A stretch of 60,826 nt of DNA, filler included, from Dugesia japonica (lineage: Eukaryota): assembly GCA_001938525.1 (NCBI GenBank). It is 6 parts of 6 records of this genome, joined end to end, with 100 filler letters (N's around TTAATTAATTAA, not from the genome) between each part and the next. Parts side by side here need not be neighbours in the genome. Positions count along the whole stretch, not along the records: positions 50,783 to 60,826 come from MQRL01600742.1; 5 more parts are not named here. One strand, written 5' to 3'. The position numbers and the translations under genes are program-made. The notes beneath the pieces were generated by a model. That model saw nothing but the letters and a program-made list of their open reading frames with translations, had not been told where the DNA came from and searched no databases. Shown here in pieces: positions 6,028 through 60,826 of the stretch. Position 1 is the stretch's first letter; each line of letters starts with the position of its first letter.

Positions 6028-6806
6028 AGGTAGCGAAGAATTTTGGGATTTACATCAACCCTGTGTAGATATCATAAACTCGACTCTTGGAAAAGCAATG
6101 GGTGGAACAATGGGAGGTTACACCGTTGGATCCAAGAGTTTAATTGATATGCTTCGACAGAAATCAAGACCATATTTATTTTCTAATACTTTGCCACCAA
6201 GTGTTGTGGCAGCATCAATTAAAGCTCTGGATTTGATAATAAATGACAATGATGGATTACTGGATAAACTACGTGAAAATACACATCGATTTCGAACTGA
6301 AATGACAAACCTCGGATTCAATATAATGGTTGATATTTATTTATGTTTATAAAGAGTATGCATATTTTATAAACAATCACAATAGTTATACTTTAACGAG
6401 AATGTCTAATTAGTCAATTTATCACTCCAAATTATTTATCATTTCACTTAAGTCTTCATAAAAATCAAATATCTTTATTGATATTTTTTGCGAAATTATT
6501 GACAAAATTAATTAGGGCGATAAATCTCATCCAATTTGTCCTGTGCTGTTAGGTGATGCCAAATTGGCAAGCGAATTTGCAGAAAATATGCTTAGTAAGT
6601 AGTGGGGTATTATGGAATTGATATTAAGTTAATAAATCAATCGGTTTACAGAAAAAGGGATCTATGTAATTGGATTTAGTTATCCCGTTGTTCCGAAAGA
6701 TAGAGCGAGAATAAGAGTGCAAATTTCAGCGGTTCACACAACTGAGCAAATTAACAAAGCAATTGATGCATTCAAACAAGTTGGATCTGATTTAAAAGTT
6801 ATTTAA
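6028..6806 (+). CDS. GCAT: 2-amino-3-ketobutyrate CoA ligase (glycine C-acetyltransferase), last 3 exons: 6028-6328, 6516-6594, 6652-6806; 5' exons not seen in window
   Basis: Spliced translation reads RGSEEFWD..DIINSTLGKAMGGTMGGY..LRQKSRPYLFSNTLPP..GFNIM|GDKSHPICPVLLGDAKLA..ML|KKGIYVIGFSYPVVPKDRARIRVQISAVH..KVI*. It contains the PLP-lysine motif STLGKA. GT-AG introns 6329-6515 and 6595-6651 preserve the frame. Confidence 0.95.
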
Positions 6807-18567: not shown

Positions 18568-18718
18568 GGTTCCAGTTCTTTCATCCCTCATACGAGTTTT
18601 GGCCTTCTAGTCCCATTTTGGTTTTCGTAATTCTTCTCTCTTTTCTTATGTAGATTCTTTGAATTTCGTGTTTACCTACGCCATTATATTTGCCTTAATC
18701 CGGTGTTTCACACCAATA
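18568..18718 (+). mobile_element. Right end of the TGTTGGGG..CCCCAACA LTR-like family, abutting the Maverick capsid gene
   Basis: Aligns by eye to 50880-51070 (..tacgccatt..tttgccttaatc.ggtgtttcac.ccaa.a). Confidence 0.8.
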
Positions 18719-29061: not shown

Positions 29062-30156
29062 TCACTCTAATTTTATCTTTTTGCAATTATTTAAATTGTT
29101 TTCTGTTGAATTTGATCGTTTTAATGAAACAATTTTGTTTACGTTATTATTTGAACTATTTGATAATAATTTCTCTTTATTTTTTATCCAATATAAAATA
29201 GTTGATAATGAAACATTTAAATCACTAGCAAGTGTTGTTATTGTTTCTCCATTTTCGTATCTTTTAATTGCTTTTAATTTATCTAAAATTGGTATATTAG
29301 ATTTTGGTAGTTTCTTTATTCCGATAAATACATTTTCTTCATTTATTTCTTCAATAAAATTATAAAAATTTTTATTTGTCTTTACTCCTTGGTCATCAAT
29401 GAAATTTTCAGAAATATTTAAAAAAGATTTTTGTAATTTGTCTTGATTATTATACCAACTATAAATAGTTTTTTTACTTACTTTAAAAGCACAACTGAGG
29501 CTTTTCAATGTTTCTCCTTTTTTATATCTTTGAATTACTTTTAACTTTTCTAAAATTGATTGTAAAGATTTTGGCCGATACTTTATAATGTTGAAAATAT
29601 TTTCTTCAATTATTTTGTGTTCTTCTTTTTTATTGAAATCAGATAAAGTTTTATTTTCATTTACTACATCAATTGAAAATTCAGAAGAAGATTTTGAATA
29701 TTTCTTCTTTAATTTTTCTTTATTATTATACCAATATAAAATAGACGATTCACATACTTTAATATCACAACTAATGCTTTTCAATTTTTCTCCATTTTCA
29801 TATCTTTTTACAGCTTCTAACTTCTTAAAAATTGGTATTTTTACTTTAATTTCTTTTTTCTGTTTGTTTTCAATATTTTCATTTAATATTATTTGTTCAC
29901 CAATCAAATTTCTAGAAATTTCTGAAATTAATTGATCTTTATTATTTCCCCAAATGAAAGATTTTGATGAATTTACATTTAATTCACAACCAACTCTTTC
30001 AATTGTTATTTCATTTTCACTTTGTTCTTCTGTTTTGGATTTTTGCAAAAGTGGTTTTTGTTTTGAAATTAATATTTCAATTTCTAAATTTTTCTCACGA
30101 ATTTCTATTTGATTTTCTGTTTGAAATTCTTCAGAAATACTAGTATTATCTTTCAT
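29062..30156 (-). CDS. Intronless protein with three tandem CENP-B N-terminal/pipsqueak-type HTH DNA-binding repeats
   Basis: Intact 364-aa ORF in aaaATG context. Three repeats of K(L)..(V/I).RY..GE....(I/L).....VS..(T/S)I..W..N..KL, and a basic C-terminus KKIK. Confidence 0.85.
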   Translation of the reverse strand: MKDNTSISEEFQTENQIEIREKNLEIEILISKQKPLLQKSKTEEQSENEITIERVGCELNVNSSKSFIWGNNKDQLISEISRNLIGEQIILNENIENKQKKEIKVKIPIFKKLEAVKRYENGEKLKSISCDIKVCESSILYWYNNKEKLKKKYSKSSSEFSIDVVNENKTLSDFNKKEEHKIIEENIFNIIKYRPKSLQSILEKLKVIQRYKKGETLKSLSCAFKVSKKTIYSWYNNQDKLQKSFLNISENFIDDQGVKTNKNFYNFIEEINEENVFIGIKKLPKSNIPILDKLKAIKRYENGETITTLASDLNVSLSTILYWIKNKEKLLSNSSNNNVNKIVSLKRSNSTENNLNNCKKIKLE

Positions 30157-31049
30157 TTTAACAATGTTTTAATTATATTTAATTGATTTATAATAATAGA
30201 AAATTAATAATAATAAATTTTATATTTGATTAATTTTATTGGATAAAATTTTAAAAAATAATTACTAAATAATATAAATTAATTAAATTAATGTGATTAA
30301 GAGAACTTCCAATAAAACAATTCAAAAAATTTGATTCTTTCAATATCTCNNNNNNNNNNNNNNNNNNNNNNNNNNNNNNNNNNNNNNNNNNNNNNNNNNN
30401 NNNNNNNNNNNNNNNNNNNNNNNNNNNNNNNNNNNTTAAATTTAATTTAAATTTAATTCATTAAAATGAATTAATAGTAACAACTATCTATTTGGTGGCA
30501 CAACCACGAAAATAGAGCGTCATACTCAACAAAAATTACCTGACAATTTTTATGATCTACAAGTTTCCTGGGAGCTATATAAACTGGCAAATAGAAGATA
30601 GGGACACATAAATCAGAGGCTCGTTTCTATGTAGATTCTTATAGAAAATTAATTTAAATTGAAAATTTTTGAAATGTGTAATTATTAATTGTAAAAATTG
30701 TTTTAAAAATTCGAATTGTCATAAATTAATATAATTTTATTCAACTCAATTCTCATTGTTATACTATTTTTTAAAATTATTTATTTTAAATTATTATGTT
30801 ATTAAATTATAATAATAATAATAATAAATTATTTAAATAATTATTCGAAATTTTTTGAAAATTTTTGTTCTAATTAATTTTTATTATTTTCTATATAATT
30901 AAAAATAATACATTAAAATTATTTATTTTTTCATTAAATTTTATCAAAAAGCTTCTTTCATTTCATATCAAAAATTTTCGTTTATTTCGTTTTTTCTAAA
31001 ATTTTTAAAATTTAATTTATTGATATTAATATTTTTAAAATTTTAATTA

Positions 31050-34969: not shown

Positions 34970-37110
34970 CTGTTATCAAGATTATAGAAATGAGATCCCT
35001 AATGAAAATTTACGAGGACAAGGAACATCGTACCAACGAATTGTTGAAAAGGAAGGTATTTGTGATACAAAAAAGATGAGTTATGCAAATGTAGTTAAAC
35101 CATACATAAATAGAGTTAAAGAGGATAAACATAAAATACCTTTTAATAATTTGTCAGTAAAAAGAGTATATGAGAGGAGCACCCAACCAGTGATAATGGA
35201 AGATAGAACACAGGTGATGAGGCCAAAACCGACAAAATCGATGAAATAATTGACAAGATTTTATTTTAATAGACAAAGAAGATTTCCAGAACCTCGTGAA
35301 GAGAAACACCAAGAGTAACAATGTTATTGCTGTTGAGAACATAAGCATAAACGATACCAATGCCCGTTAAAAGACAAATTTTTAATTTGCGGCACGTCTG
35401 GACATAACTTTAGGTCTTGTTCGATTTTACTGGGTTCGTCTAACAGAAGGAACATTAAAGTTTTGTGTATTCAAGAAGAATTAGACTATTCAAAAGATGA
35501 CGATGAGAGTGTGAAAGATCATGTTGTAGTAATGGCAAAAAACAAGAACGACTCCATTGCTTAGATTTTGTCGATGGAGTCAGTATAGAAAAAGACGAAA
35601 TAAATCGAGAGTGGAGACGAGTAAATGTTAATGGAGTAAAGTTAGAGGTGTTGTGGGATTCATGAGCTTCGGCGAAAGTCATGAGTGAAAACTATTGGAT
35701 TAAAATTGAAAAACCGTTGTGGTCAATGTTTAATATCAGATTAAATGGAGCATTTAATAAAGACAGATAAAAACCGTTTGGCATAGCAGAATTAAGTATA
35801 CAGTGGAAAAGAAAGTCAGAAAATTTAAAGTCATCATAGTTAGACAGATCCACCAAGAATTAATAGGCGGTATTGATACAATGCAAATTTTTAAAGTGAA
35901 ATTAACAGAAATAAATAACATCAAAAATGAGAGTCTGAAGATAACAGATTCTGATGAAGATAGAAAAAATAACGCGTTGAAATTTTTTTAATAACAGAAA
36001 AATGGTTCAGTTGATTCATAATCTTCGTGAGATATTCAAAGCTTCAAAGTTCGACATTAGGCATACGAGAAAAGCAATACATGAAATAAAAGTTAATAGA
36101 GATCCAATAGTTCAGTACCCTAGAAGAAAGCCAATGCCTTTAAAAAAGAAAATTGAAGATATGGTTAAAGAATTAGAAAAGATTGGTGTGATTAGTAAGT
36201 ATTATAGTCCTTGGAATTCCCCTTTAGTGATTGTGAGTAAAAAGGATGGCTCGATAAAGATGTGCGTGGATTACAGAAAATGGAATTTGAGGACAGAAAA
36301 GGTGTCTTTTCCAATACCAAACATGCATTTATTATTAGATTATTTATCTGGCTGGGAAATATTTTCATCGATTGATCTAAGCCAGGCTTGTAATAAAGTG
36401 GAGTAAGCGGAAAAGTCAAGGGTTGTCACTGCTTTTAGAACAAAGGAAAGCCAATTCAGATTTAACCGAATTCCTTTTGGAGTAGTTACAACACCGATCA
36501 CATTTCAAAATTTAATGCACTAGTTATTGGATGGATTAATTTTCAAAGGAGTTATTGTATATCTAGTCAATATTTTGTTGTACGTAAAATCTTTGGAGGA
36601 TCACGCCAAAATGTTATAGACAGTCTTTTACAGGATCAGAGACTCGGGATTAAGAATAAATACGGAGAAAAAAAGTTTTATCAGAAAGAAGTTTTATTCT
36701 CGATGCATACAGTGATTGCAACTGGTAAATGTACTATTGAATTTAAGATTTAGGAGATTAAGGATGCTATAGTTCTAGAATGTTCTTCAAAACTTCGTTC
36801 GTTTCTTGGACTAACAAACTACTACAGACGTTTCATAAAATATTATGCAAAGATAGCAGCTCCTATATATGAAGCAACTTCAGGTTGCAACAAACTGTTA
36901 GTTTGAACAGATGCATACCAGAACAGTTTCAATGCGTTAAAGGACAATTTATGTAGTGCTCCAGTATAAGAATATCCAAGGGAGGTTCGGGTGTTCATTT
37001 TAGACACTGGCGCCAGTTTTAGTAATATGGGTGCACTCCTTAGTCAATGCGAAGAGGAAAAGAGAGTGGCGTGTGTATTCAGACATTTGACAGCTTATAA
37101 AAATATAGAA
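34970..37110 (+). mobile_element. Degenerate Ty3/Gypsy gag-pol (zinc knuckle, protease, RT, RNase H), truncated
   Basis: CGTSGHNFRSC knuckle; LWDS*AS protease; SPWNSPLVIVSKKDGSIKMCVDYRK RT; LRSFLGLTNYYRRFI; ILDTGAS RNase H. Confidence 0.92.
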
Positions 37111-37151: not shown

Positions 37152-38442
37152 TACAGCGTGTGAGAAAAATAAGTAACTATCAGATTTTAAAATTTTATAT
37201 TGTTAAATGTATTTGAAATAATATTGCAAATATTTAACACAATAAAATTCAAATATTAAAATTTAATATTTTTCTACAGAACATCCATTAAAATCGATAC
37301 AAGTTTGTAAACGATTATAAAAAGAAGTCATAGCATTTTCATACATTTCCAGTGGTACTTTAGCTGCCTCTTCTTCAATTAAATCTTTCAGGTCTTGGAT
37401 CGTCTTTGGTTTTCATATATAAACCTTTGTCTTCAAGTATCCCCAAAGAGAAAAATCCATTGATGAAAGGTCTGGTGATCTCGCAGCCCAATTGAATGAC
37501 CCACATCTTCCAATCTGCCTTCCTGGAAATGTTGTGTTCAAAAAATGTCTAGACTGAAGCGAGTAATGAGCAGGCTGTCCATCCTGTTGAAAAGTTAATT
37601 TCAATATTGTTCTGAGACGAAGTTGAAGCATGAGCTAAGATTTAAGAATCTCTAAATAATTAGAGCCATTCACATATTCATGAAAGAAGAAGGGAATACT
37701 CATCCAAGCAGTAACCTTTAGATTGGAATGGCATATTTGGATTATTACATTGGGCGGTTCAGTTCCCCAAATTCCGCAAGTTTGTCTATTGACAAATCGA
37801 TTTAAATAAAAAGTGGCTTCATCAATGCAAATAAGATTTTCTAGAAACTCTGAATCATTGTAGATTTTATTAAGTAATGTTTGATACATTCCTATGCTTT
37901 CAGCATAATTCTCATCATGCAGCAGATAGAGCACTTCAATTTTTATGGAAAAAATGAAGTTTACGTCGTAGTACATTATGTACTGTTTTGAAACTGCATT
38001 CAACTTCCTTAGCAGCATTTCTGGTAGAAGTCATAGGAGCTTCTGCATAAATTTCACAAATTTCATTCATTTTTCTGTCATCAATTGAAGGTTTTCTAGT
38101 GTTGTGAATATCGCAAGCACTGCCAGTCTTTTGAAATTTTGTAAATATGTCTTTATCGTATATTTTTCCATTTGATATTTTTTAAATGTCGTTGAACTAA
38201 TGTCGCTGAATTCTTCTAAGCCATCAACAATACAATTTCAACTCTTTCTTCAATAGTGAAAAATATACAAACTTGAATTCACCGCACCTAAATGTTTTTT
38301 GTATTAATTTATTTAAACAGTTTTACACTTAGAAAAGATTTTGAAATTCTATTTTTATATAAAGTAAAATTGGTAAAATGAAATTATAAAATAAACGTTT
38401 GGTAGTTTTAAAATCTAGTATTTACATTTTACACACCCTTTA
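37152..38442 (-). mobile_element. Near full-length degenerate Tc1/mariner-superfamily element
   Basis: DEATF..VNRQTCGIWG, FQQDGQPAH and WAARSPDLSSMDFSLWGYLKTKVY motifs; TA-flanked TIRs cagcgtgtg../..cacaccctt. Confidence 0.9.
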
Positions 38443-42043: not shown

Positions 42044-44157
42044 TGTTGCGTCACTAAATTATTTGTTTTAATTAACTTTTTTGTGATAAAAATACAATTT
42101 TTAAATTCAAACTCTGCTGATTCTATTCGTTAATTATTATACAAAATAATTNGGAACACAANATTTTTGTCGGAAGTGTAATTTCAGAAAACAGTCATGT
42201 CTCAATCAAGTTTCCGAATTATTTTGAAAATTCTTCAGTATGGTTCAAGTAGAATGAAGCAATTTTTCAATTATCCAATATCTGTAGGCCAAGGACAATG
42301 TTCCTGCACTTGATATCAAACATTCCATAAAATATTCTTGACGAATTTCATGAACATCTGGACTTCAACGGTGACATGGCGTGTGAACACATGAAAGAAC
42401 CCATAATTCAAAGCAAAATCGGAAATCCACTTCATGTCACATGAAGAAAATATTTGACAAATCAATGCACCAGAGTGGTCGTCAATCAACAAAGACACTA
42501 AGGAAAATGTTGGGGCACTTCAAACAGATATCTGCAACAATGTAATGCTTCGTATCACATTCATTCAACATTTTCCTAAATCAATAGCACAACATCTAGC
42601 CTTACAGGACTCCATATCCATAAAAGATCTACGTCTGACGGCCAGTAATCTAAAGCAATGGAGCGATGCCACCACATCTACACCACCAACTAACAAAATA
42701 CAAAACAAAATTCTCACGAATAATAAAACACTGTGATAATGTTACCGTTGATGTATATAATTGCCTAGAAAGAATAAGTTGTTTCAGATTTGAAGAATTC
42801 CAGAAATTAAACAACTTCTCATAACGCGAGGCAAACAACTCTATAAAGATGGTCAAACAACGCTATCTATATCTCAATATGAAATTGGACATCAGAAGAT
42901 GGACAAGAGAATGTCTTAAATGCCAAAAAGCTAAAATATTAAGACAGACAAATCAACCTTAGGAATACTACAAAACTTAGGAAGCGTAATAGGTAAAAAT
43001 TATAGAAGCAGTGCCATTGGGTTAGATAACAAAAAAAATTTATTGAGGTTTTATAAAGAGAATGATTCAGCAGATTCAGTAGTCTGAAATATTAATCACA
43101 GATCAAAGGAAGCAATTCACTTCATCAACATTTCAAGACATGAGCAATAAAATTGGTATCAATAACATGATTACAACAATATATTATTCACAATACAATG
43201 AAAAAGTCGAGAGATTTCACAAAACCCTAGAAAACGCAGTCAGGGTGCACTGTATCAATGCCAAGAAAATACGGAACAAAGACCTTTTAAAAGTAATAAA
43301 AAACTGTTATTCATCACTATGACGAACTATCACCAGAAGAAGTAGATAAAAAAATAAAAATCAGCGACAATCAACACCGACCAAAAATTCAGAAATTAAG
43401 ACTTTATTTCCTAATGAATTATACGACTGCAAACATACTTCATACTGTAATTATAGCTATAATTATAGCTGTATATTATTATATACCAAAAATCAAATTT
43501 AAAGTGTATTATTTTGTTTCTTTATAAAGGCAAACGAATACACTATCTTAACATATTCATACGTTTACGATAAAGATATAATTTATATAATAATTGTATC
43601 GACATATAACAAAGGGTAAAATCAAAAAATCGTAAACTCATCAAACTTATCGTCAATTATTTAGCTTTAATATTCGAACCATAAACTCAACAGATAATTC
43701 AACTATACGGTTTCTAGGGGACTTGCAAATTAGAATTCATTTTGACGAACTATAACAAGAAGTAGATAAAAAAAATCAAAATCAACGATAATCAACACCG
43801 ACCGAGGATGCACAAATGTAAGACTCTCTTTACTAATGAATTAAACGACTGTAAAGAAGAGTGGTTGAAAATTGAAAACCCGAGAAGTTTACAATTCTTA
43901 TGTGAAGGCCCATTCAAAGTAATCGATAGAAGTGCAGATATGAAAGACTTCAAAATCTAGATCAATGGCGAATCAAAAAATGTCTCCGTAGATCATCGAA
44001 AGCCAACAAACAATCATTTTGAAATTACTCAGTGATTCTGTTGGGGGCAGTGTTGCGTCATAAATAATTTGTCTTAATTAACTTTTTATAAAATTACAAT
44101 TATTAAATTAAAATTCTTTGCTGATTCTTTTCGTTAATACAAAATAATTTGAACACA
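42044..44157 (+). mobile_element. Internally deleted Ty3/Gypsy element with two ~110-bp LTRs (42044-42160, 44051-44157)
   Basis: tgttgcgtca..gaacaca LTRs; PPT gggggcag; gag FPNY..WF..EA.F; integrase ..RWTRECLKCQKAK, DQRKQFTS, VERFHKTL; no RT. Confidence 0.88.
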
Positions 44158-44732
44158 ACTTTTCTATTATAATAATTTGAATTTTGTTAAAATGTACGGA
44201 TTATCGACAAGCAGATCTTTTTAAATTTGGTGAAATACATTTTTTGAATGATTTAATTTTTACTTTATTAAAAACAGCAATTAAAAATTTTCTTGTTAAT
44301 AACAATGAATCAAGAAAAATAATTGACAATGATGGCTTTAAATTAAAATGTTTCAATAATTTTAGCTATATGAATAGATATCACTAAAGTTTCTTTCAAA
44401 GTTAAGCTCTTAACGAAACCCTTATTAAAGTAATTGTTAATATAGTTCACTTTATCATAAGAAAGTTTTACTTCACATTCTGAGCGCAGATAAAGCCTTT
44501 GCCAAATGTAGTTTTGCTGATTGCTTCATACTTATATTCATGCATATGTATCTATACATATTTGGATATTTGCAAATAGTTAGATTCACAAATTTTAAAA
44601 TCTGTTTCATTAATAAAAACCCATAATAAAATAATAAGTTCTTCAGTGACACACGCATCCAGCGTTAATGACAACTGATCATNNNNNNNNNNNNNNNNNN
44701 NNNNNNNNNNNNNNNNNNNNNNNNNNNNNNNN

Positions 44733-45631
44733 ACGATAATCAACACCGACCGAGGATGCAGAAATGTAAGACTCTCTTTACTAATGAATTAAACGACTGT
44801 AAAGAAGATTGGTTGAAAATTGAAAACCCGAGAAGTTTACAATTCTTATGTGAAGGCCCATTCAAAGTAATCGATAGAAGTGCAGATATGAAAGACTTCA
44901 AAATCTAGATCAATGGCGAATCAAAAAATGTCTCCGTAGATCGCCGAATGCCAACAAACAAACATTTTGAAATTACTCAGTGATTCTGTTGGGGGCAGTG
45001 TTGCGTCACTATATAATTTGTCTTAATTAACTTTTTATAAAATTACAATTTTTAAATTAAAATTCTTTCCTGATTCTTTTCGTTAATACAAAATAATTTG
45101 AACACAATTTTTGTATTATAATAATTTGAATTTTGTTTAAATGTACGGATTATCGACAAGCAGATCTTTTTAAATTTGGTGAAATACATTTTTTGAATGA
45201 TTCAATTTTTACTTTATTAAAAACAGCAATTAAAAATGTTATTGTTAATAACAATGAATCAAGAAAAATAATTGACAATGATGGCTTTAAATTAAAATGT
45301 TTCAATAATTTTAGCTATATGAATAGATATCACTAAAGTTTCTTTCAAAGTTAAGCTCTTAACGAAACCCTTATTAAAGTCATTGTTAATATAGTTCATT
45401 TTATCATAAGAAAGTTTTACTTCACATTCCGAGCGCAGATAAAGCCTTTGCCAAATAAAGTTTTTCTGATGCCTCCATACTTATATGCATGCATATGTAT
45501 CTATACATATTTGGATATTTGCAAATAGTAAGATTCACAAATTTTAAAATCTGTTTTATTAATAAAAACCCATAATAAAATAATAAGTTCTTCAGTGACA
45601 CACGCATCCAGCGTTAATGACAACTGATCAT
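44733..45631 (+). repeat. Near-identical duplicate of ~43785-44682 across a gap
   Basis: Same integrase end, LTR and flank with scattered substitutions; probably an uncollapsed haplotype. Confidence 0.85.
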
Positions 45632-48899: not shown

Positions 48900-49975
48900 G
48901 GTTTAGTTTATCAGGTAAATGACGGTTTGAAAAACGAGAAAAATCGAACAAATATGGACAGACCCGAAAAATCCAGCAGGGTTCAAATGAGTGGAAAAAC
49001 TATGGAAAGCAAAACACAATTCGAAAAGCGAGACAAAAAAGTGGTTATCGAACAAGATATCGTTCAGTCTGAACAAGCCAATGTTGAAAAGATTCTCAAC
49101 AAGACCGTATAAAACCTATGGTATTGATGATTTATGGCAAATGGATATAATGGAAATGATACATTATTCGAGAATTAATAAAGAATACAAGTATATTTTG
49201 ACATGTGTTCTTTAGTAGATTTGCAAGAGTTGTAACAATAAAATCAAAATCTGCTAATGAAATGGAAGCTGGAATCAAAACAATTTTTAAAGAGGGGCAT
49301 TTAGATAACTTACAAACTGATTTGGGAAAAGAATTTTATAATTCAACGGTCAAGAATATTATTAATCATCTCAAGATTAATAATTATTCTGTATTTTCAC
49401 AATACATAGCAGTATAAGTTGAAAGATTTAATCGAAAATTGAGAGATGCATTGAAAAAGTACTTTGTACATACTGGTAATAAAATTAAATAATAAAACCT
49501 GGATAGATGTGTTACCGAAAGTAATAGTTATAATCATACAAGTCACAGAGAATTAAATGTAGCTAGACTCGTTATCAGTTAGACCCGTCTGATAATTCAA
49601 TGAAATTATGGCTTTTGAGACAACAACCAAAAGAAATCAAGAAACCAAAATATAAAGTTGGTGATCATGTTAGAATATCAAATATATCAGCTTCATCATT
49701 CATCAAGAATTTCGAAAGGAATTGGAGCGATAAAGTGTTTGAAATAACAAATACAAAGCAGAATCTTATCACGTATGTGAAACAAATATCATTGTTGGAA
49801 AATTCTATGAACAAATATAACAAATTATTCCATAACCGAGAGTATTTAGAAAAGAAAAGATTGTCAGATTAAATGAAATTGGATAAACAATTATATGTAA
49901 AGTATCATGGATATGAAAAACAAAGTTGGATATCAGAAGCTCAAGTAGTAAATTTAACAAAGAAGAATAAAAATG
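48900..49975 (+). pseudogene. Maverick/Polinton retroviral-like integrase with C-terminal chromo-like domain
   Basis: GIDDLWQMDI..YKYILTCV, LQTDLGKEFYN, VERFNRKL, KYKVGDHVRIS..NWSDKVFEI, YVKYHGY..SWI. Confidence 0.92.
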
Positions 49976-50350
49976 AGCAAAACGACTAATTTCTATACAA
50001 CATTACAGAGTAATAGTTGTCCACGTACTCATCCTGATAATAAAGCAAGTAGATTCATAGTTGTACTAGAAAAACATATTTACTTGAATGAATAATGGGA
50101 AGTAGCATTGATGGACTTTACCTTTATATATTTTGCCTTTCAATTATATAATAAATCATACATAAAATATATGTAACAATTGATGATTATGAGAGGAATG
50201 TAGAAATCATAATCAATAACAAAGAAAAATCATTTTTGGTTAATGATATTGGTTTTGGGATAATTGATAAAAAAAATCATTATTAATCGCATTAAAACAT
50301 CATGATTATGTTGAAATATTTGGCAATTAAGAATATGCCAAAAGACTTCG
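49973..50350 (+). pseudogene. Maverick penton N-terminus of a second lineage
   Basis: NFYTTLQSNSCPRTHPDNKASRFIVVLEKHIYLNE*WEVALMDF matches FY.TLPSN....PDN..S.F...L...I.L...WEVAL. Confidence 0.8.
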
Positions 50351-50782
50351 ATTTAATACTTTAAGGAATGATATAGATACCTATTCTTGAGAGAACTTTC
50401 ATGTCTTGGTTGACAGAGTATACTACTCCAGTTAGAAAAGGTGATGATTTGGAAACTTCCAGTTTAACAATTTGTAATATTTTATAAAGTATGTCTTCAT
50501 AAAGAAAGTTTTCCATAAGTTCTGTATTTAACATAGTGAAAAGCTTAGTATTTTGAAAGCTATCTTTTAGTTCATGATATTTCCGAACATTCATTGTCTA
50601 TCTTGCTGTTGTAGTAAAATGGTCTTTAAGTAATATTTTCTAATGGTATATGGTTTGTAATCTCTGCATCTGGTTTTTGAGCNNNNNNNNNNNNNNNNNN
50701 NNNNNNNNNNNNNNNNNNNNNNNNNNTTAATTAATTAANNNNNNNNNNNNNNNNNNNNNNNNNNNNNNNNNNNNNNNNNNNN

Positions 50783-51070
50783 ATGAATCAGTTCCTTGGC
50801 CATCGTTTATTATTTTCGTTGTTCGGATTACCGCTTTTTTACTTTGTTGGCTTTTTATTTCCTCGTTATCTCTTGCTGTAGTTCTAGTTCTTTCGTCCTT
50901 CGCACGAATTTTGGTCTTCTTATCCAATTTTGGCTTTCGTCATTCTTTTCTCCAAATAGATTATGCCTTTCTTGTCCGATTTCTTCATTTTCTTTTCTTA
51001 GGTAGATTTTTCAAAGTTCGTGTTTACTTACGCCATTTTATTTGCCTTAATCTGGTGTTTCACCCCAACA
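50783..51070 (+). mobile_element. Right end of LTR-like unit (..gtttcaccccaaca)
   Basis: Same terminus at 18718, 58339 and 60090. Confidence 0.8.
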
Positions 51071-51091
51071 ATACTAAGAAAGTAATAATAC

Positions 51092-53160
51092 TGTTGGGGT
51101 ACTACCTGACTTTTGTGGCGGAAAAATGGAAAAACAGCCCTCAGGGAACCCTTTCAAGAATTTAACCTAAAGTCTCTTATTTAGGCTTTCAGTGTAGAGC
51201 GGTTGACTTTTTATTTTATGAGAGGTACACACCCGTACACCTTTAATTCGGGTCCATACTTTTCGTTTCTCTTATGCATAAGATTCAAAGAAAACTAGTT
51301 GAAAAGTTCTATTGACATAACAGTTACATTTCTTCCAACGCACTAGGATCTAACCACTGATCTGGATCGGTCGTCACAAAATTGAAGGCGGCGACGTCGT
51401 CGTTGTCGTCCCATTGCACCCAAGTGGGGTTACCAATTTGACATGACAGGTCGGCTATATATTGTTTTAAGAAATCTACTTTCCGTTGCAATATCTGGGT
51501 ATTCTGTGCTTTGAAAGCCTTAGTTTTTTTCGGCCAAGTCATTTTGTTTCTTAACCACTGAATCTAACTTCTTGATCAATTGATCTCGCTCAGAGAGATG
51601 TCTTAACAGAGCCCGGTCGGTTTTACGCTTTAAATGGCGTTCTAGCAACAGACGGCGCATGATCCGATGACATCTCCGCAAACTATTTGGAAAAAAAAAT
51701 TCGTGGCACTAAATTATTAATCATTAATAATAGGGAAAAAACAATGAATATTATCGATATCAAACTAGTCTAGTCAAAATTTAGGTGATATACGCTAAGG
51801 CAAAGATTATAACACTCGATTATTTATTTACAGAAACAGAAAATTTAGTCACGCGATATGGATTTTGCCTGCGTGCTCTTATCAACCATGAGGGGTTCTA
51901 GGTAGGATTTTTTTAAAGATGCAGGATATCCTTGACCAGTTTATTTTCACGGTCATGGCTGGACTGGATAATCTCGGCGAACGACTCTACCTGGGATTTC
52001 CAAATTCTTTCTTTGTCGTGCGCAGCTTCCATCTCTTTGCGTACGTTAACAAATTTATTCCTATAACGCTTCACTTTTGCGTTCGCAGTGGATATCTCAG
52101 CTTCAAAACGGCGTTTTGCCAGCCGATATAACTCCCAGGACATTTCGGTGTCATCACTGGAGTCTCTCATCTGCTTATTGGGGGCCGATGGTCAGTTTAA
52201 TGATGAATGCACTGTAACATAAATACAATAAAATAATGGAATCTAAATAGGACTGGCTATGGTTCAAAAAGTAAAAACAGAATGGGGTCTTAACCAATCA
52301 AGTAATAAAAAGACAGAGAAAAGCAAATTCTTAATTAAATCTTTATTTCAAATTAACTAGGTTACACTAACACCTCTGAGATTTCCTCCTCGGCGTTTTC
52401 GTTGTTATTACTAGACATATCATTACAGGCACTCCATAAATAGTTCTGAACGAATTGGGTTGCTGAGGGCAGGCTACTGGTAGTCATGCCTACTAAAGAA
52501 GGTCCATTATGCCATATACGTTCTACTTGTTGTGCTTTCCGATTTCTCTCAAAAGAAAGCGGTGCCGGGGGAAAAACAACCCGGTCTCTTTTAGGACCAG
52601 TCCAGTCGTAGTATGCGTGTCTCTCGGTTGCATTCCAGTGTATCTCTGTTATTGCCTGGTCAAACGGCAAGTTTGATCTTTCTACCAAAACTCCTGCATC
52701 TCGGTCGTAGAGGTTTTGATATTTTTTAAACACTGTGCGTCCTGAATTAATGTCGAGACTAATCTCCCATTTATACTACATCTATTAAAGTGAAAATATT
52801 TAAAGTAACATTCGCAAATACAAATCTCGCAATAATGAACACAAAAGTAAAAATTTTATTCGGTACGAATTAATTTAACATGCAATTTCTTATTCCCCTC
52901 AGACTCTATTTGATCTTCCAGAGGAAACATCTCTGCAAAACACTGAAGATCAGTTTCGTTTGGATGTTTGATTTTCCCATTAGTCAAAAAATGAGCTATT
53001 AACTGTCAAAATCGAGCGGTTTGGCGTTGTTGTCTTATTCATCGCAGGGTATGGCGCAGTTCTGCTGACAATAGCTAAAAATAATAAATGTATACTGGTT
53101 AAATTCAAAGTTTGAGTTCTCATAAACTATCTAAAGACACGTAGCATAGAAGTGTAGTAA
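51092..53160 (+). mobile_element. Truncated left half of LTR-like unit with antisense 4-ORF cassette (copy 1)
   Basis: Starts tgttggggt; colinear with 53384-55500. Minus-strand ORFs D ~52885-53074, C 52362-52781, A 51845-52211, B 51324-51708. Confidence 0.8.
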
Positions 53161-53383
53161 TATCATTAGTGGCCTTGTAGTATTCAATATTTTGTTAATA
53201 ATATCTAGAAAAATAATGTTGGGTGTTTTAGTATTATTGGTAATAATGATGATAAAAAATTTTTAAATACTTTTCAAGATGATATCAATACTAATAATAA
53301 TGGTAAGAATAAATCCTAATAATAATTATTATTAATGATAATAGCAATAGTAATATTAATAATAATAATAACAATAATAATAA

Positions 53384-56300
53384 TTTTGGAGTCCCACCTG
53401 AGTTGAGTCACAAGGAAAAATGGCTGGGGAAAAATCAGCCCTCAGGTAAACCCTTTCAAGAATTTACCCTACCGTCCCTGTAGTAGGTTTTCAGTTTATG
53501 GCGGTTGACCTTACTCTTAATGGAAGGTGCTCACCGATAAACCTTTAATTTCGGGTTCTATATTTTTCCCTATTATTAAAAAAAATTAAATTACAACGCT
53601 GATTAAATATTTTATTAAAATTAAACATTTTAGAGCAGATCCAATGCTCTCGGATCTAGCCACTGGTCAGGGGACGTTACTACGAAATTGAACGCAGCGA
53701 CATCGTCATCGTCATCCCATGGCGCTACATTGGGATTGCCAATTTGTCGGTACAGGTCAGCAATATATTGCTTCAAAAAGTCGATTTTTCGCTGCAATAA
53801 TTGCTTCGTTTCGGCTTCTAATGCCTTGGTCTGGATAGCAAGGTCATTTTGTTTCTTTATGATGGTGTCTAATTTTTTAATTAACTGGTCTCGTTGCGCC
53901 AGATGCTTTCATATGGCTTTGTCGGCCTTACACTTCAGGTGCTGTTCCAGAAGAAGGCGGCGCATAATGCGATGACATCTTCTAAGGTTATTTGGGAACT
54001 GAATGCGTGGCACTAAAAATTAACAAAATATAATGAAGGTTAATATCATTGAAATTGTCATCAACGAACTAAACAAAGAAATTGAAAAAATTCAAGGTCA
54101 AGAGACATAAAAACTCATATATTTTTATAAATGTCAAACGTGGGGATTAAGTTTGGTCTGGGTGCCCTTATCAATCATAAGGGGCTCCAGATAAGATTTC
54201 TCTTTTAAAATGAGAATATCTTTGACCAGTTTATTCTCGCGGTCATGGCTTGACCGGATAATCTCAGCGAAGGATTCCACCTGGGCCTTCCATACCCGCT
54301 CTTAATTTTGTACCATCTTCATTTTGTCGCGGACATTTATACATTTGGTTTTGTACCGCTTTACTTTAGCGTTAATGGTTGCGATTTCTGCCTCCCAACG
54401 CCTCTTGGCCAATTTATATAGTTCTCAGGTAATCTCTCTATCCTCGTTATCCTCGCGTAGTTTTTTTGTTGGGGCTTGTGATCGGTTTAAAGACGAGTGC
54501 ACTAAAATACAATTTACATAACATTTAAGAATTCTACGGAAGACTGAATTTAAAAAATAAAAAAAAATACGGTCAATAAGACAAGAATTATTTAGTTATA
54601 ATTTACTAAAGAAAACAAATATCGTTTTAAATTTTATTTCAGGACTAGAATGTTAAACTAACACGTCGGAATGCTCCTCTACATTTTCATCATTAGTACT
54701 AATTAATGCGTTTCGAACTCCCCACAGATTGTTCTGTATAAAGGATGTGAGTTGTGCCGTGGGAGGCAAGAAACTCGTAGTAAGGCCGACCGATGAAGGG
54801 CCATCGTGTCAGACACGTTCTATTGGTGGGATTTCTGCCGAACGTTCAAAGGAAAGAGTTGCTGGGGGGTGGCGACCGGGTCTCTACGTGGACCTCGCCA
54901 ACTATAGTAAGCAGCTCGTTCGGTTGCATCCCATTGCCGCTAATTATCAGCTATTTCAGGAGGTAGATTGGTGTTATAGACCAACACACTGGCATCCCGG
55001 TTATATGGGTTCCGATATCTTTTGAAGGTTGTCTTACCAGTGTAGATATCTAGGCATACCTCCCATTTAGATTCCATGTCTGTTTATTTATCTTCTATAA
55101 TAAATAGCCGATTAAGCAAATTTTTATTTACCAAAAATGAAGTATATTTAATTAGTATCTAGTTTATATTCAGGAGAAATAAACCACAAGTAAAATAAAA
55201 CATCGAATTTTAATTCATAAACAATATATGACACTTGACTGAATACACTTCGACTGAGAGATTATACCATTGATTTAGCTAGTGTGGTTACTCCTCATTC
55301 ATGTCCACTCTATGTTCAAGAGGAAACATCTCAACGAAACACTGAAGGTCAGTTTCGTCGGGGTGCTCCACTCTGCCTTTTGTCAGATAGTGGACGATCA
55401 ATTGTTTTAGGCGAGTGGCTTGCCGTTGCTTTCTTATCTGACGTAGAAGGTCTCGAAATGTTGACGCCCTCATCTAATCACAAAACACAATTTTAATTTT
55501 TTATAGTAACCCCTGCCTCTGTTACACCTTTGAAGGGAGATTTGGCTGTGGTCGGCCTATTTTATAATGCTGTCACTTGGCTGAATCAAATCACTAATCT
55601 CCCAGTTTATTATTATAAAACCCAATCACATCTTATTGGGTAATTTTTTGTCTTAATATGAGTCCGGTTTCAAAGCCACTCCATAGAATTGATAGTGATA
55701 TTAATTAGATCGAACCGAGAATTAGACATTGGGTTTACAGGGATCATACCCGTAGTTTTCGCAGGCATGTACCATCAGTCATATTAGTAATAACAAATGA
55801 AAGAATTAATATTAGCCCTACTACTAATAACGGTATTAGCAAGATCCTTCCAAAGTAGTCAAGCTTATCAGTGATTTTAACATAGTACAGATTATCCCAA
55901 TACTCGTAACGTGGATGAAGATGGCTAGAAAATTTTAATAATATAATACTGTTACTCTCAATGCTAACAAGAATATTAATATTAATAATGTCACTAATAA
56001 ACCATAACAATAAAAAACGTTAGTAACCATAATATCACTAATCACCTCGTCAATAATAATAAAATGCAAATATCCGAATAAAATTTATAATAACAATACT
56101 ACTCCTATTATGAGGTTAAGAATTAATGAATAATAATAACCCTTACAATATATTAATAATAATCATGATAAAGCACTAAGATTCCCAATAATAATATTAG
56201 TTACAACCATGGAGGTATCAGTGCAATATTTAAACAGGACTAGTATCAGAGAAATTAAAAAAAACAGAATATTTGATTTGTATTTCGTCACTACAAGCTC

Positions 56301-58339
56301 AGAAGCCTCCCAAAATATCCGAGTGTTATTATATAATTATTGTATTCAAATTCCGGCCTTACATCGTTGCTTGGCGACTAAGTTAATCTATTCTACATGC
56401 ACACGTACTCGAGGTTAGACGGTAAATTACACCACTACTTGGCTAATTCTAATCATTAACGCAGAATGTATATTGCATAATTTTCCATGAAAAACAATGA
56501 TACCCGAAAAGTGGAATTTATTTGGCTCAAATCGTGACTAATCAATTCTTTTTCCTTTTTATTTATGCCATGCAAAACTGCAGACACATTTTGATTATGT
56601 TAGGCATTTTTGATTGACGAGTTGGATTTATGGATTTTATCGCCAAAACTAGAGTTATCTCGTGTGTCGTTTCGAACGGATATTATTATTTATTTTGGAT
56701 GAATAACTTTCTAGTGATAGAATAGTGAGTTATTTTGTTAAAACATTAAATAAATTCATTTAGTAGTTGTTTCTTAATCTATGTATTAATAGCTAATTTG
56801 TTTTAAAATTTACCTAAAATATATCAAATAGGAGTAACATTTATTAATTTCTTATTTATTTGTCAATCCCTGTATTGGTTATATGCAAAGTGTTTCTTCT
56901 AAAATTGATTATCATTTCATAGCAAGGAACTTCAGTTAATACTGTGATTTATCTAGTCAGTAATTTTCATTGATTACCCTAGAGTAAACTACTTTCAATT
57001 TGAATTTTATTTATTATCACATGGATTTAAAGTTTCTAATTTTGACTTATTCACTAATCAGATTACTAATTAAACATTGTGCAAATTATTTTGAATTTGA
57101 ATATTATTAAAGAGACTCAGGCTACTAACGTTGAATTATTTCTTAACGCATATCTAAACATAATGTAAATCATTTTTAATTTGAAATTTCTCAACGAGAC
57201 TTAAGCTTCTATTTCTGCTATTTTATCTAATAGTTAAACATAAAATAAAATTCAAAAAAGGAAAATTTTTAATAACATTAATTATGAAATAGACACACCA
57301 TTATAAAATACATATTAAAATTTACTTTTCAAATCAGCAACTATTCTGGTTTAACAACAGTTAAATATGGGAGGATGGCGATAGCAAATTTCGGTAGACG
57401 ATTACTTCTTCTGTGGCTTACTAAAATACTCAGAATTTTATTCTCTCGACCCGAGTTTTCTTCCCGTACGATATCACGATGGCAATTTTTATTGAAGGGT
57501 ATTCTAGAAGAATTTATTACAAGTGAAGCTATTTCAGTCTCCAACTAACTGTTTGAATAGTTAATTTTAGTGGTGGTTGATTTCTCGAACCAATGATGAA
57601 CAATTTTTTCAAAGGCTTAAATTAGGTCTTATCAAGGATTAACGTATGAAAAATAATGATAATAATGAATTAATTTACTAAAATCAGAGATCTATTTTAT
57701 AGGGTTTATCTTAGAACCCGTCTTCTTTTAGATTTGCTGACTATTTTTAGATCAGCCTCTTTTTGATTCTATTGGTTTCATCCCCCAATCTTTATAATTT
57801 TCTACAAATTTTTTGTGCTATGATTGGCAGCTATTTTTATCAGGCCACATGATATTTGGTTCTTTGTTATATTTTTAATTTCAGGTTTTCTATTGGCCGG
57901 ATCTTAGGAACCTTGCGGTACCCTTCTGGAAGGTGGTAAGTTTTCCTTCTTCGGGAATTTAATTGCACTTGGCTATTTTCTCTTTATTTTTTCTTGTCCT
58001 GATTCTTTCCGACTTCCAGGACCAAAGTTATCCAAGGAAAATAGATTTTTGATTAATTTTGTTTCTTTTTTATTTTAAAATTAATTAATTTTCTTTTGTT
58101 AATTAATTATTTTTCTCATTGCTTTTCTTCGCTGTTTATTATTAAATTAATAATTGCTTTTAATTTCCCAAGTAAGTTGCTCAGTTTATCATATTCACCT
58201 TTGATTTTATTTCGTTCCCTTCCAATATTGATTTCAGACCTTATTTTTCTATTACAGGTGATTATTGTGGTTCTATTATTATTATACGTTGATTTATCTT
58301 TTCGGCTTGTTCCCGTTTAGCGGGTGTTTCACCCCAACA
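53384..58339 (+). mobile_element. Apparently complete ~4.96-kb LTR-like unit with antisense 4-ORF cassette (copy 2)
   Basis: Degenerate start ttttggagt, end accccaaca, ATAA on both sides. Minus-strand ORFs D 55288-55473, C 54653-55077, A 54134-54501, B 53630-54012. Continuity of the middle part is inferred. Confidence 0.6.
55288..55473 (-). CDS. Orphan 61-aa cassette ORF D (open in copy 2)
   Basis: gattag|ATG start; the homologue in copy 1 conserves IR.QRQ..R..QLI.H.LT.G...HP.ETDLQCF.EMFPLE. Confidence 0.55.
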   Translation of the reverse strand: MRASTFRDLLRQIRKQRQATRLKQLIVHYLTKGRVEHPDETDLQCFVEMFPLEHRVDMNEE

Positions 58340-58590
58340 ATAATAATGATAATAACAGTAAGAATAATACTAATAATANNNNNNNNNNNNNNNNNNNNNN
58401 NNNNNNNNNNNNNNNNNNNNNNNNNNNNNNNNNNNNNNNNNNNNNNNNNNNNNNNNNNNNNNNNNNNNNNNNNNNNNNNNNNNNNNNNNNNNNNNNNNNN
58501 NNNNNNNNNNNNNNNNNNNNNNNNNNNNNNNNNNNNNNNNNNNNNNNNNNNNNNNNNNNNNNNNNNNNNNNNNNNNNNNNNNNNNNNNNN

Positions 58591-58649
<59 letters not shown>

Positions 58650-58700
58650 CATAATAACAATTATCATAATAATGATAATCATAATAATAACCACAGTAAT
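58591..58700. repeat. (AAT)n microsatellite between LTR-like units
   Basis: perfect then degenerate aat run. Confidence 0.95.
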
Positions 58701-58719
58701 AGTAACGAGAAGTTTACTA

Positions 58720-60090
58720 GTCTGATTAAACATAATCACAAAGAGGTAATTACTAATAATCAGGCAAAAAATATATATAACTAAGTCATCTAAATGCATA
58801 CGATCATGGATAGTCGGTAATCCGAATGACTGTGTCCACCCCCGGGTTTCAGCGTATTTACTCTCACTTGTTTAAAATTTATAATCCCATGCTAATTATA
58901 TTTTCTGGTTTGCACTGTGACAATTGCATGTCAAGTTGCCAATGGTTAAGGACAGTGGAAATTACTCCCTGCGGTATTATGGCCGAAAAACAACATGCTG
59001 CATTGACACAGAACACCATCGATTTGATATTACGGTTGCTATTTTTCTCTATCATTAATTGAAAGAGAAAATATATTTGAAGAATAAATAACTAATTTCG
59101 GATTAAACGTTGTATTTTTGTACAGTTAAAATTAAATTTAACAACACTATTTATTACATCATACTACATTTTCAGTGTTAAATTTCTCACTAATTTTCTT
59201 CTAGTAGTAGAATACTTTGTCCACTTGAAGAAAATTCAATTGATTTGTTACATGTTTCTACGATGAACAATAAAGTGACTTTACGTACTCCTGGTTTTGC
59301 ACTAGTAAAGTAAAATTTGACGATAATGCTGGTAATGCCAAGTAACTTTTATAAAGTGATACAGTCTTGGTGTTAGTTTTTGTTAAAGTTTTTTGTTGTT
59401 TTTTCACTAAACTTTCCATGGCTTATATAGGACTTTGGTTGCATCCCGACTGTGTTCTTGTTGGTCGGTTATTTTTAGTTTGAATCTTTTAAATTTCATT
59501 GGATCTGATGTCAATCTTCGGAGAGTTCTGGAATTCTGATTGGTAGCTATTTTTGGATTGTCAGGTGAGATTTTGTTCTTTGTTTTATTTTATTTTCAGG
59601 TATTTCATTGGTCCAGTTTTCAGGGTACTACCACAGTATTCTGGGTGATGGTAAGGTTTATTACTGGTGAAATATTGATGAACCAGTCTGAGTCCTTCCA
59701 AAATTTATTTACGCTGAGCTTCTCGGATTTCCTGGAGCAAAGATATTTAGCATAAACGAATTTTTTGTTTAATTTTCCTTTATTTTAGAACTTAATTAAT
59801 TATTATTTTCTTTATAATTAATTCTTTTGATTAATAATTTTCTTGTTTCTTTACTAACAATTTAATAATTTTCTTTAATTGATTACATTAATGGATGTTG
59901 GCTTGATGACCCAAGTTCATTGTTGTCGGGTTTCTCTTAGGTTGTTCATTCACTCATTAATTTACACCTTGTTCGATGGTTGTACTCGTTCTTTTAACCG
60001 TTTTTGGTGCCTTATAATTCTTTCCCGTATTTTATAATCAATGATCGCCTTGATCTTGCTTCTTCCTTTATTGTGTGTTTCACCCCAACA
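58720..60090 (+). mobile_element. Diverged right part of another LTR-like unit
   Basis: 59560-59760 is homologous to 57845-58050; ends gtttcaccccaaca followed by an AAT-rich tract; left boundary uncertain. Confidence 0.65.
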
Positions 60091-60826
60091 ATACTAATAA
60101 CTATAATAATAATGTGGGATCATGTGGGAATTAATGGTAATGTTATTGCTAGCCTTAATAATGATAATAATGTGAAGAATAATAATAAGAATGATAATAA
60201 TGATGGTAACAATAGCAATAACAATAATAATAATAATAATAATACTAACAATAACTAATAATAACGATAAATAATGATGATAAATAATAATCACACCACT
60301 AATAATAAGCATGATAGAGTTAATCATGAAATCAACCAAATTAGTACTGATGAAGGGATAGCAAATGCATTATCCATGACATTAGACATAGACACATTTT
60401 TGATTACACAAGAATGATGGCAGCAGTGAATCATTATGAATTTCAAAGCTAGGACATGTTTACTCGGTTAAAGCCCAGCTAATGATGATTATCAGTGAAA
60501 AATTTAGTTGATCAACAATTCCGAAAATATTAGCTGACAGTGCGAAGTATACCAGTCGACTGTGGGTATTGATACTTTTATGAATCATCAGTAAAGAGAC
60601 TAGAATTAATTGTTAACTAGCAAGATTATGGAATGAATAACTACTAGTAGAGAAAAAATTCCGTGAACGTTGCTAATTGCTGATTCAGTCAAATTTATCA
60701 AAAAAAAATATTTTCCTTTTCTATTGCTTTGGCATTCTTTTTTTGTGACAATTAGATAGTGGCGCACTGTATCACCCCCCCCCTCAAGGTCAAATTTTTT
60801 CAAGGTCGATGATACAGTAAACCTGT

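Follow-up and report, generated by a model that had tools for sequence, protein, structure and literature searches.

The small accessory open reading frames (ORFs) carried by retrotransposons with long terminal repeats (LTRs) usually go unnoticed. Those described as having been studied are few and turned out to be fusogens or RNA-export factors (PMC10309623; bioRxiv 10.1101/2025.03.14.642691). Two of them, sORF1 and sORF2 of the MDG1/412 group of Gypsy, are reported as accessory ORFs of 70–110 aa in an invertebrate LTR element, with a low ratio of nonsynonymous to synonymous substitution rates (dN/dS); the same report describes MDG1 elements as reading through an internal poly(A) site and sORF1 as nuclear (bioRxiv 10.1101/2025.03.14.642691). 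The giant Gypsy-like planarian element Burro and the plant element Ogre are described with multi-kb LTRs, accessory ORFs and thousands of copies (PMC6431247), and Burro is reported from a genome of >70% AT (PMC11410931). Accessory proteins are also reported from LTR promoters: the regulatory protein HBZ of the type 1 human T-cell leukemia virus (HTLV-1) in the antisense direction (PMC12846392), and CERV of the Caenorhabditis elegans element Cer1 through splicing (PMC10309623). Here, we describe a cassette of four small ORFs, named D, C, A and B, in DNA of Dugesia japonica (GCA_001938525.1). The window, meaning the whole stretch analysed, is 60,826 nucleotides long and joins 6 parts of 6 records with filler; the cassette lies in the part from MQRL01600742.1 (positions 50,783 to 60,826). 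The cassette is real, it is repeated, it was shaped by past purifying selection, and its copies have decayed. We give even chances to the reading that the two units carrying it are solo LTRs of a Gypsy-type retrotransposon, in which four alternative last exons, together with a leader and a single promoter, would all lie in the repeat itself.

The order D-C-A-B on the minus strand is colinear in both copies, copy 1 at 55473–53630 and copy 2 at 53074–51324 (Table 1). A preliminary description had proposed this arrangement from the sequence, and it stands at the junctions given there (55473, 54501, 54012, 53074, 52781, 52211 and 51708). So do its statements that the ORFs are GC-richer than their flanks (GC 0.43–0.47 vs. 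0.13–0.25 in the spacers, copy 1) and that the spacers are less conserved between the copies (identity 0.49–0.55 vs. 0.61–0.68 in the ORFs). From each stop to the next acceptor, the spacers measure 74–208 nt, with AATAAA and a T-rich tract. The same description held that the ORFs had been under purifying selection and are now mostly pseudogenes, and both statements are borne out. The ratio of nonsynonymous to synonymous differences (pN/pS) was computed between copy 1 and copy 2, skipping gapped or stop-containing codons. It is 0.37 for D (59 codons; bootstrap upper bound 0.55), 0.33 for C (117 codons; 0.43), 0.21 for A (116 codons; 0.28) and 0.18 for B (124 codons; 0.24). Synonymous sites are near saturation (pS 0.71–0.91), and mismatches are concentrated at third positions. 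The remaining two same-strand frames give 0.62–2.61; the opposite-strand mirror frame is also low, as expected (0.31–0.52), and is above the proposed frame in every ORF. Stops or frameshifts now interrupt 7 of the 8 ORFs.

The unit is a diverse repeat family and not a single-locus gene cluster because of the counts, identity spread and depth of matching contigs in a public run, X1. In that run, 11,088 of 10,231,477 contigs were placed on 51050–58340, 794 of them at 99+% identity, 1734 at 95–99, 4224 at 90–95 and 4336 at <90%. Summed depth in X1, which is made of contigs (0.21 of the words) and in which such a sum is no copy number, is 28–330 over 55442–57637, 43,655 over the end of A in copy 2 and 61,520–68,248 at the terminal block. 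Together with the unit termini described below, this supports the word mobile, which had been applied to the cassette from the start.

Table 1. Positions of the units, ORFs and predicted control sequences in the window (a slash marks the acceptor or donor boundary; X1 is the public contig run)
Feature	Positions	Strand	Details
Inner unit	53384..58339		4956 bp, running between two termini: cassette copy 1, a middle of low copy, then the promoter-like block
Outer unit	51092..60090		~4043 bp not counting the inner unit; ATAC at either flank; 9-bp terminal inverted repeat without mismatch
Conserved 170-bp terminal block, copy 1	53384..53555		72% to copy 2; where X1 depth for the family is greatest
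Conserved terminal block, copy 2	51092..51250
End of third, diverged unit	50790..51070	-	Same 15–20 bp terminus; 21 nt from outer unit; cut by assembly gap
ORF D copy 1	55288..55473	-	61 aa, AG/ATG; sole unbroken ORF
ORF C copy 1	54653..55077	-	Own ATG; in-frame stops and one frameshift; AATAAA at 54638
ORF A copy 1	54134..54501	-	AG/TG start; predicted coiled coil; C-terminal LC8-type motif; 2 in-frame stops
ORF B copy 1	53630..54012	-	AG/TG start; one in-frame stop; AATAAA at 53616; predicted product with basic N-terminus, then long helix, then acidic aromatic tail
ORF D copy 2	52856..53074	-	Acceptor without ATG; 2 in-frame stops
ORF C copy 2	52362..52781	-	AG/ATG; codon 2 is a stop, then 137 open codons; AATAAA at 52347
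ORF A copy 2	51845..52211	-	AG/TG start; 1 stop and 1 frameshift; AATAAA at 51828; LC8-type motif in frame-shifted tail
ORF B copy 2	51324..51708	-	AG/TG start; 2 frameshifts
Candidate leader donor, inner unit (predicted)	57416..57422	-	A/GTAAGC, GT at 57421; top intron-side score among 17 GTs before first ATG
Candidate leader donor, outer unit (predicted)	59283..59289	-	A/GTACGT, GT at 59288; best among 9 GTs before first ATG
Promoter-like block, inner unit	57695..58339	-	CCAAT at 57892, 57823, 57771; TATAAA at 57701–57696, facing cassette
Promoter-like block, outer unit	59423..60090	-	CCAAT at 59607, 59539, 59498; TATATAA at about 59429

The four segments are separate genes and not exons of one protein, as had been proposed, because the stops of C, A and B occupy identical alignment columns in both copies, because selection reaches up to the stop, and because no strong common donor was found. 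Identity is 0.58–0.69 in the 36 columns before these three stops and 0.44–0.53 after them. The donor was sought near the ORF ends with rough generic weights, and the best scores of sites common to both copies were <=0.7 for D, C and A. Alternatively, a mobile element could have captured or duplicated one or two ordinary proteins, of which the segments would be exons and in which the stops would be a product of decay. That reading would account for the GC-rich blocks, the AT-rich spacers of intron size, the AG at each start and the weak GT-containing sites that both copies have close to where C ends. It does not fit stops that have stayed in the same columns though the copies diverged to synonymous saturation, nor the lack of a strong common donor. 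The start phases also differ (0 for D, 1 for A and B), and the homolog of C described below, P0003, is called from its own Met. We rank this as the least probable of the explanations considered. The proposal that the stops are followed by AATAAA stands in part. The signal starts 14–17 nt past the stop in four of the eight ORFs (C copies 1 and 2, A copy 2 and B copy 1; shuffle p 0.030, 0.010, 0.012 and 0.064); it overlaps the stop in D copy 2, and there is none within 80 nt in D copy 1, A copy 1 or B copy 2. A YAG precedes all eight ORFs, in C copy 1 lying 2 nt ahead of the ATG. Across 589 spacer columns, five YAGs are common to both copies and aligned, three of them at ORF boundaries.

The starts of the ORFs follow two patterns. 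An ATG stands directly after the AG in D copy 1 and C copy 2 and two bases further in C copy 1. Despite a pS of ~0.9, the four copies of A and B all begin AG/TG and so lack one base of a full codon. From the pattern of codon changes, A and B read as coding upstream of their own first ATG. The 13 B codons ahead of it comprise 6 identical, 5 synonymous and 2 replacing; the 22 A codons ahead of the first Met comprise 3 identical, 8 synonymous and 11 replacing, with the first five residues all conserved, three of them through synonymous change. Because A and B start in this way and appear to be coding before the first ATG, we predict that a leader ending in A would complete the ATG in both, and it would leave the starts of D and C intact. 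When donors are scored on intron bases only, again with rough generic weights, the top donor in the ATG-free stretch after the TATA has A at -1 in the 5' halves of both units (chance ~0.15, weak).

A mobile operon would also place an acceptor and a poly(A) signal at each gene. One pre-mRNA would be cut at each poly(A) site, with spliced-leader trans-splicing at each acceptor, an option that the preliminary description had left beside the single promoter. The short spacers with AATAAA and a T-rich tract match operons with intervening sequence, and a report on flatworm operons used an intercistronic spacing of 300 bp or shorter; the flatworm spliced leaders it reports all end in ATG (PMC12582326). 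Such a leader puts A and B out of frame: in A it opens the wrong frame, which runs for 4 codons to a stop in each copy, and in B an unselected one. A leader ending in G, as in nematodes and cnidarians, leaves A without a common early ATG. Trans-splicing of the flatworm type does not fit A and B, and we consider a mobile operon in general to be distinctly unlikely.

At the other end of each unit is a promoter-like block: over ~650 bp adjoining the 58339 and 60090 ends, three CCAAT sequences and a TATA that faces the cassette are kept in aligned positions. The blocks of the two units align with a score of 269, compared with a maximum of 87 in 30 shuffles. A/T-rich boxes beside the CCAATs resemble MEF2 sites. 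On the plus strand, an outward-facing donor-like GGTAAG is conserved at 57935 in the inner unit and 59650 in the outer. There is a 51-nt block on the same strand (57886–57936 and 59601–59651), running from an acceptor-like TTTCAG to the GGTAAG donor with equal length in both units, and it is possible that it is an exon, perhaps coding. A second TATA-like site with a nearby CCAAT lies just upstream of D copy 1 (55500–55640, minus strand) at low depth in X1. This TATA-like site is absent upstream of D copy 2; it could be an alternative promoter.

Each cassette copy continues through the conserved 170-bp block into a complementary end, at 51092 or in a 2-mismatch version at 53384, and the 15-bp ends at 58339, 60090 and 51070 are identical. 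In both copies, the cassette is linked to TG..CA termini (TGTTG..CAACA-type ends), as had been suggested. The termini fit the TG..CA, TGTNR pattern, which is the pattern given for Gypsy LTR termini (PMC2836005). The inverted repeat matches at 9/9 positions in the outer unit and 7/9 in the inner and is limited to 9 bp, with identity 0.24–0.27 beyond; blastn, set to compare both ends of one unit, found no direct repeat. All unit ends adjoin (TAA)n-like DNA. The flanking 4 bp are ATAA/ATAA at the inner unit and ATAC/ATAC at the outer, both in microsatellite, and the unit middles are conserved only as microsatellite. The inner unit appears to be nested within the outer one. The end of the third unit is ~80–86% like 18569–18716, where the same kind of terminus lies beside an assembly gap; the similarity of that segment is to 50881–51068. 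It represents a second subfamily, having only the last 15–20 bp in common with the cassette-bearing units. The terminal blocks (51092–51250 and 53384–53555) can form a short hairpin, in which the copies differ by 2 double changes; this is too thin to claim, and their folding is no better than that of shuffles (z -0.40 to 0.52). The block also holds a subterminal inverted match to the end. Rfam gave 0 matches in 50000–60826, and the tRNA search gave 0.

Such ends would also suit a DNA element that is whole but non-autonomous, its TG..CA ends very short, with an integrase-type transposase acting in trans and the same spliced four-gene cargo. Both ends of both units adjoin microsatellite and not internal retroelement sequence, and introns and several poly(A) sites would be no burden to an element of this type. 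Ginger1 and Ginger2 are described with TGT termini, 4-bp target-site duplications, introns, inverted repeats of 40–270 bp and an integrase-like transposase (PMC2836005). The 9-bp inverted repeat found here is far from those lengths and from the 100–150 bp of GingerRoot, no integrase-like transposase was found by Pfam in the ORFs scanned within 51092–60090, and the outward plus-strand donor better fits an LTR followed by internal sequence. Of the alternatives, the DNA element is the most credible, and we still think it unlikely.

If the units are solo LTRs of a Gypsy-type retrotransposon, the conserved motifs suggest how the cassette would work. The CCAAT/TATA promoter ~650 bp from one end would fire toward the cassette, and splicing would join a short, non-coding leader with A as its last base to one of the four acceptors. 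D and C would supply their own ATG, the A of the leader would complete the start codon of A and B, and a poly(A) signal ~15 nt past each stop would end the message, so that the choice of splice and poly(A) site would set the protein made. The products are predicted from motifs to be soluble regulators of the life cycle of the element: A would be an LC8-bound coiled-coil dimer, B a protein with a basic region, coiled coil and acidic tail resembling a transcription regulator, and C a small domain of three strands plus helix. The element would insert into (TAA)n with a 4-bp duplication, and LTR–LTR recombination would leave the cassette in solo copies, which would then decay. Judged from sequence, the earlier suggestion that one promoter feeds alternative last exons fits better than the other readings. 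Sense and antisense orientation of the cassette relative to gag-pol seem to us about equally likely. The TATA block is in the place of a U3 promoter if the cassette is sense; an antisense cassette would have its acceptors and poly(A) sites shielded during retrotransposition, and that orientation fits the outward plus-strand donor.

The fuller claim is that an animal retrotransposon LTR holds an adenovirus-style four-gene unit, with one promoter, a split-ATG leader and four last exons with their own poly(A) sites, each solo LTR being a self-contained cassette that makes LC8-bound and transcription-regulator-like proteins. We put this forward tentatively, as possible and less likely than not. 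A unit of four genes placed within the terminal repeat would outlast LTR–LTR recombination, so that many stand-alone copies could build up in a genome and act in trans on the element or the host. A start codon split by splicing would tie translation strictly to correct splicing, and it would hide the genes from ORF finders.

Several observations weigh against solo LTRs holding four alternative last exons. Neither unit has gag, pol, a primer-binding site or a polypurine tract next to it, and the nearest reverse transcriptase (RT) match is ~14 kb off. The 4-bp flanks are low-complexity, the third unit shares the ATAC flank, and the nested join spans an N gap at about 58378–58590. If the cassette is sense to gag-pol, four sense poly(A) sites in the LTR would need read-through. 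The leader region is unconserved between the units and of low depth in X1. D copy 2 has no ATG at its acceptor and fits the leader model only as decay, and the D stop is unaligned between the copies (61 vs. 72 codons). The A copy 2 LC8 motif departs at +1 (A, not T/V). The acceptors, which had been called pyrimidine-rich, are undistinctive in this respect: only three of the eight are above the 90th percentile of the window (0.65; median 0.5; n = 1114 YAG). Three RNA runs, sampled at about 25, 25 and 6 in 100, gave 297, 85 and 37 reads of 13.6, 11.6 and 10.5 million, only partly fitting and on both strands, with one per run at 99%+ identity and nearly all <95%. RNA was seen at none of the 15 splice joints displayed (43 more were undisplayed), and no pile-up of RNA starts or ends was found along the units in the three runs. 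Both cassette copies look silent in the sampled RNA, a sample too weak for intact relatives.

None of the 10 cassette peptides scanned has a Pfam match at the curated cut-off, and such matches as there are below it are of coiled-coil type only. In A, these are followed by a tail that fits the LC8 motif [D/S]KX[T/V/I]Q[T/V] with I/V at -5; in copy 1, all six positions of the pattern agree (shuffle p 0.0012). LC8-type motifs are reported often to flank coiled coils, and Val at -5 to raise LC8 affinity, with a dissociation constant (Kd) of 0.07 uM for the peptide of that study (PMC3078936). The B model has a long helix at residues 36–90, with a predicted local distance difference test score (pLDDT) mostly >90, and a low-confidence tail; the net charge goes from +8 over the first third to -7 over the final third, a layout that may be that of a transcription regulator. 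The C model is of low confidence (pLDDT 55); in it, residues 1–57 form three strands and helices. Its best Z in VIA is 4.4, and the AP2 domain 6sy0_A (Z 4.0, rmsd 3.2, 51 aligned) is tied with unrelated rows and not significant. D is 61 aa, a basic part and then an acidic part. No ORF has a membrane segment (maximum 19-residue hydropathy, KD19, 0.8), and the A and B profiles are unrelated to each other.

The sole homolog found is a distant one of C, the 94-aa P0003 from a 512-bp ENA contig (48% identity, E 1.1e-13), which begins with Met at the same place as C. In searches limited to lengths near the query, the A alignment gave 0 of 14 candidates, B gave 0 of 4, and the C alignment gave 1 of 194, this being P0003, itself in the query; no search was made for D. 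Two of the three matches of C in a search of representatives, P0004 and P0005, are long repetitive proteins and were judged spurious, and a WW-like look of the C start had no Pfam support. A PDB sequence search with C gave 0 matches, the best in the ESM Atlas were 0.80 for C and 0.78 for B, which is below use, and Foldseek gave nothing at E<=0.001 against the PDB and predicted viral structures. Viral and metagenome contigs contained no relative of A, C or the terminal motif. This bears on a reading in which an integrated DNA virus or Polinton-like element left the cassette behind, as an adenovirus-like unit whose TG..CA ends come from separate insertions. The layout does resemble the adenovirus late unit. 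Beyond the gap, at about 48900–50200 (plus strand), are decayed peptides that by eye we take to be like a Polinton/Maverick integrase and the start of a penton; they have no Pfam match. In both copies, the cassette runs directly into the conserved terminal block, and no relative appeared in the viral contigs or predicted viral structures. We judge a viral remnant to be quite improbable.

The window is AT-rich (GC mostly 0.14–0.36, and 0.34–0.39 over 51–56 kb), with the eukaryotic content of an aminotransferase exon, a protein with CENP-B-type helix-turn-helix (HTH) repeats and an RT remnant. The exon is at 5942–6349 on the plus strand, a host exon of aminotransferase class I/II (PF00155, E 3e-11), and resembles glycine C-acetyltransferase. 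At 29062–30168 (minus strand), an open frame of 368 codons has three CENP-B-type HTH repeats (PF04218, E 2e-21); a transposase domain was not detected in it. Decayed retroelement pol pieces are located at 36002–36640 (plus strand), at about 43050–43300 and in a duplicated segment at 43785–45309, with an RVT_1 match at E 5.5e-15. Among them is an integrase-like peptide recognised by eye, with no Pfam match. The duplication in that segment, which surrounds an N gap and has a 950-bp period and 97–98% identity, may have arisen in assembly. At 37400–38200 (minus strand), a Mariner/Tc1-like transposase remnant was seen by eye, with no Pfam match at E 0.01. In the N gaps, e.g., 50683–50782, the spacer TTAATTAATTAA between N runs is an assembly marker that creates false repeats.

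In the adenovirus major late unit, several acceptors receive a common leader by splicing and the poly(A) sites are separate, and in mouse mammary tumor virus (MMTV) sag and human immunodeficiency virus (HIV) nef, a gene lies inside the LTR (U3). These are analogies of mechanism only: adenovirus is a DNA virus with capsid genes, and sag and nef are single genes. In titles and abstracts, we found no spliced multi-ORF cassette in an invertebrate LTR; Repbase, subscription journals and supplements lie outside that scope, and an entry in an existing repeat library is possible. HBZ and CERV differ in being one gene each, coded in the internal region. Compared by description only, Burro and Ogre have their extra ORFs in the internal region or polyprotein and not in a spliced cassette in the LTR. 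The units differ from Ginger1 and Ginger2, having neither inverted repeats of 40–270 bp nor the transposase, and from TRIM and LARD elements, having no terminal direct repeats at the unit ends. They share with a spliced-leader operon the short stretches between genes (74–208 nt) that hold a poly(A) signal and an acceptor. A is like the LC8/DYNLL clients in having its motif next to a predicted coiled coil, with copy 2 departing at +1. The ORFs are unlike sORF2 and the FAST fusogens, since the combination of a transmembrane segment and a basic region is absent (maximum hydropathy 0.8). With the MDG1 sORFs, they have in common that they are small accessory ORFs, predicted here to belong to an LTR element, under low dN/dS; the difference is that here four ORFs are inside a terminal-bounded unit, each behind an acceptor and none with a membrane segment.

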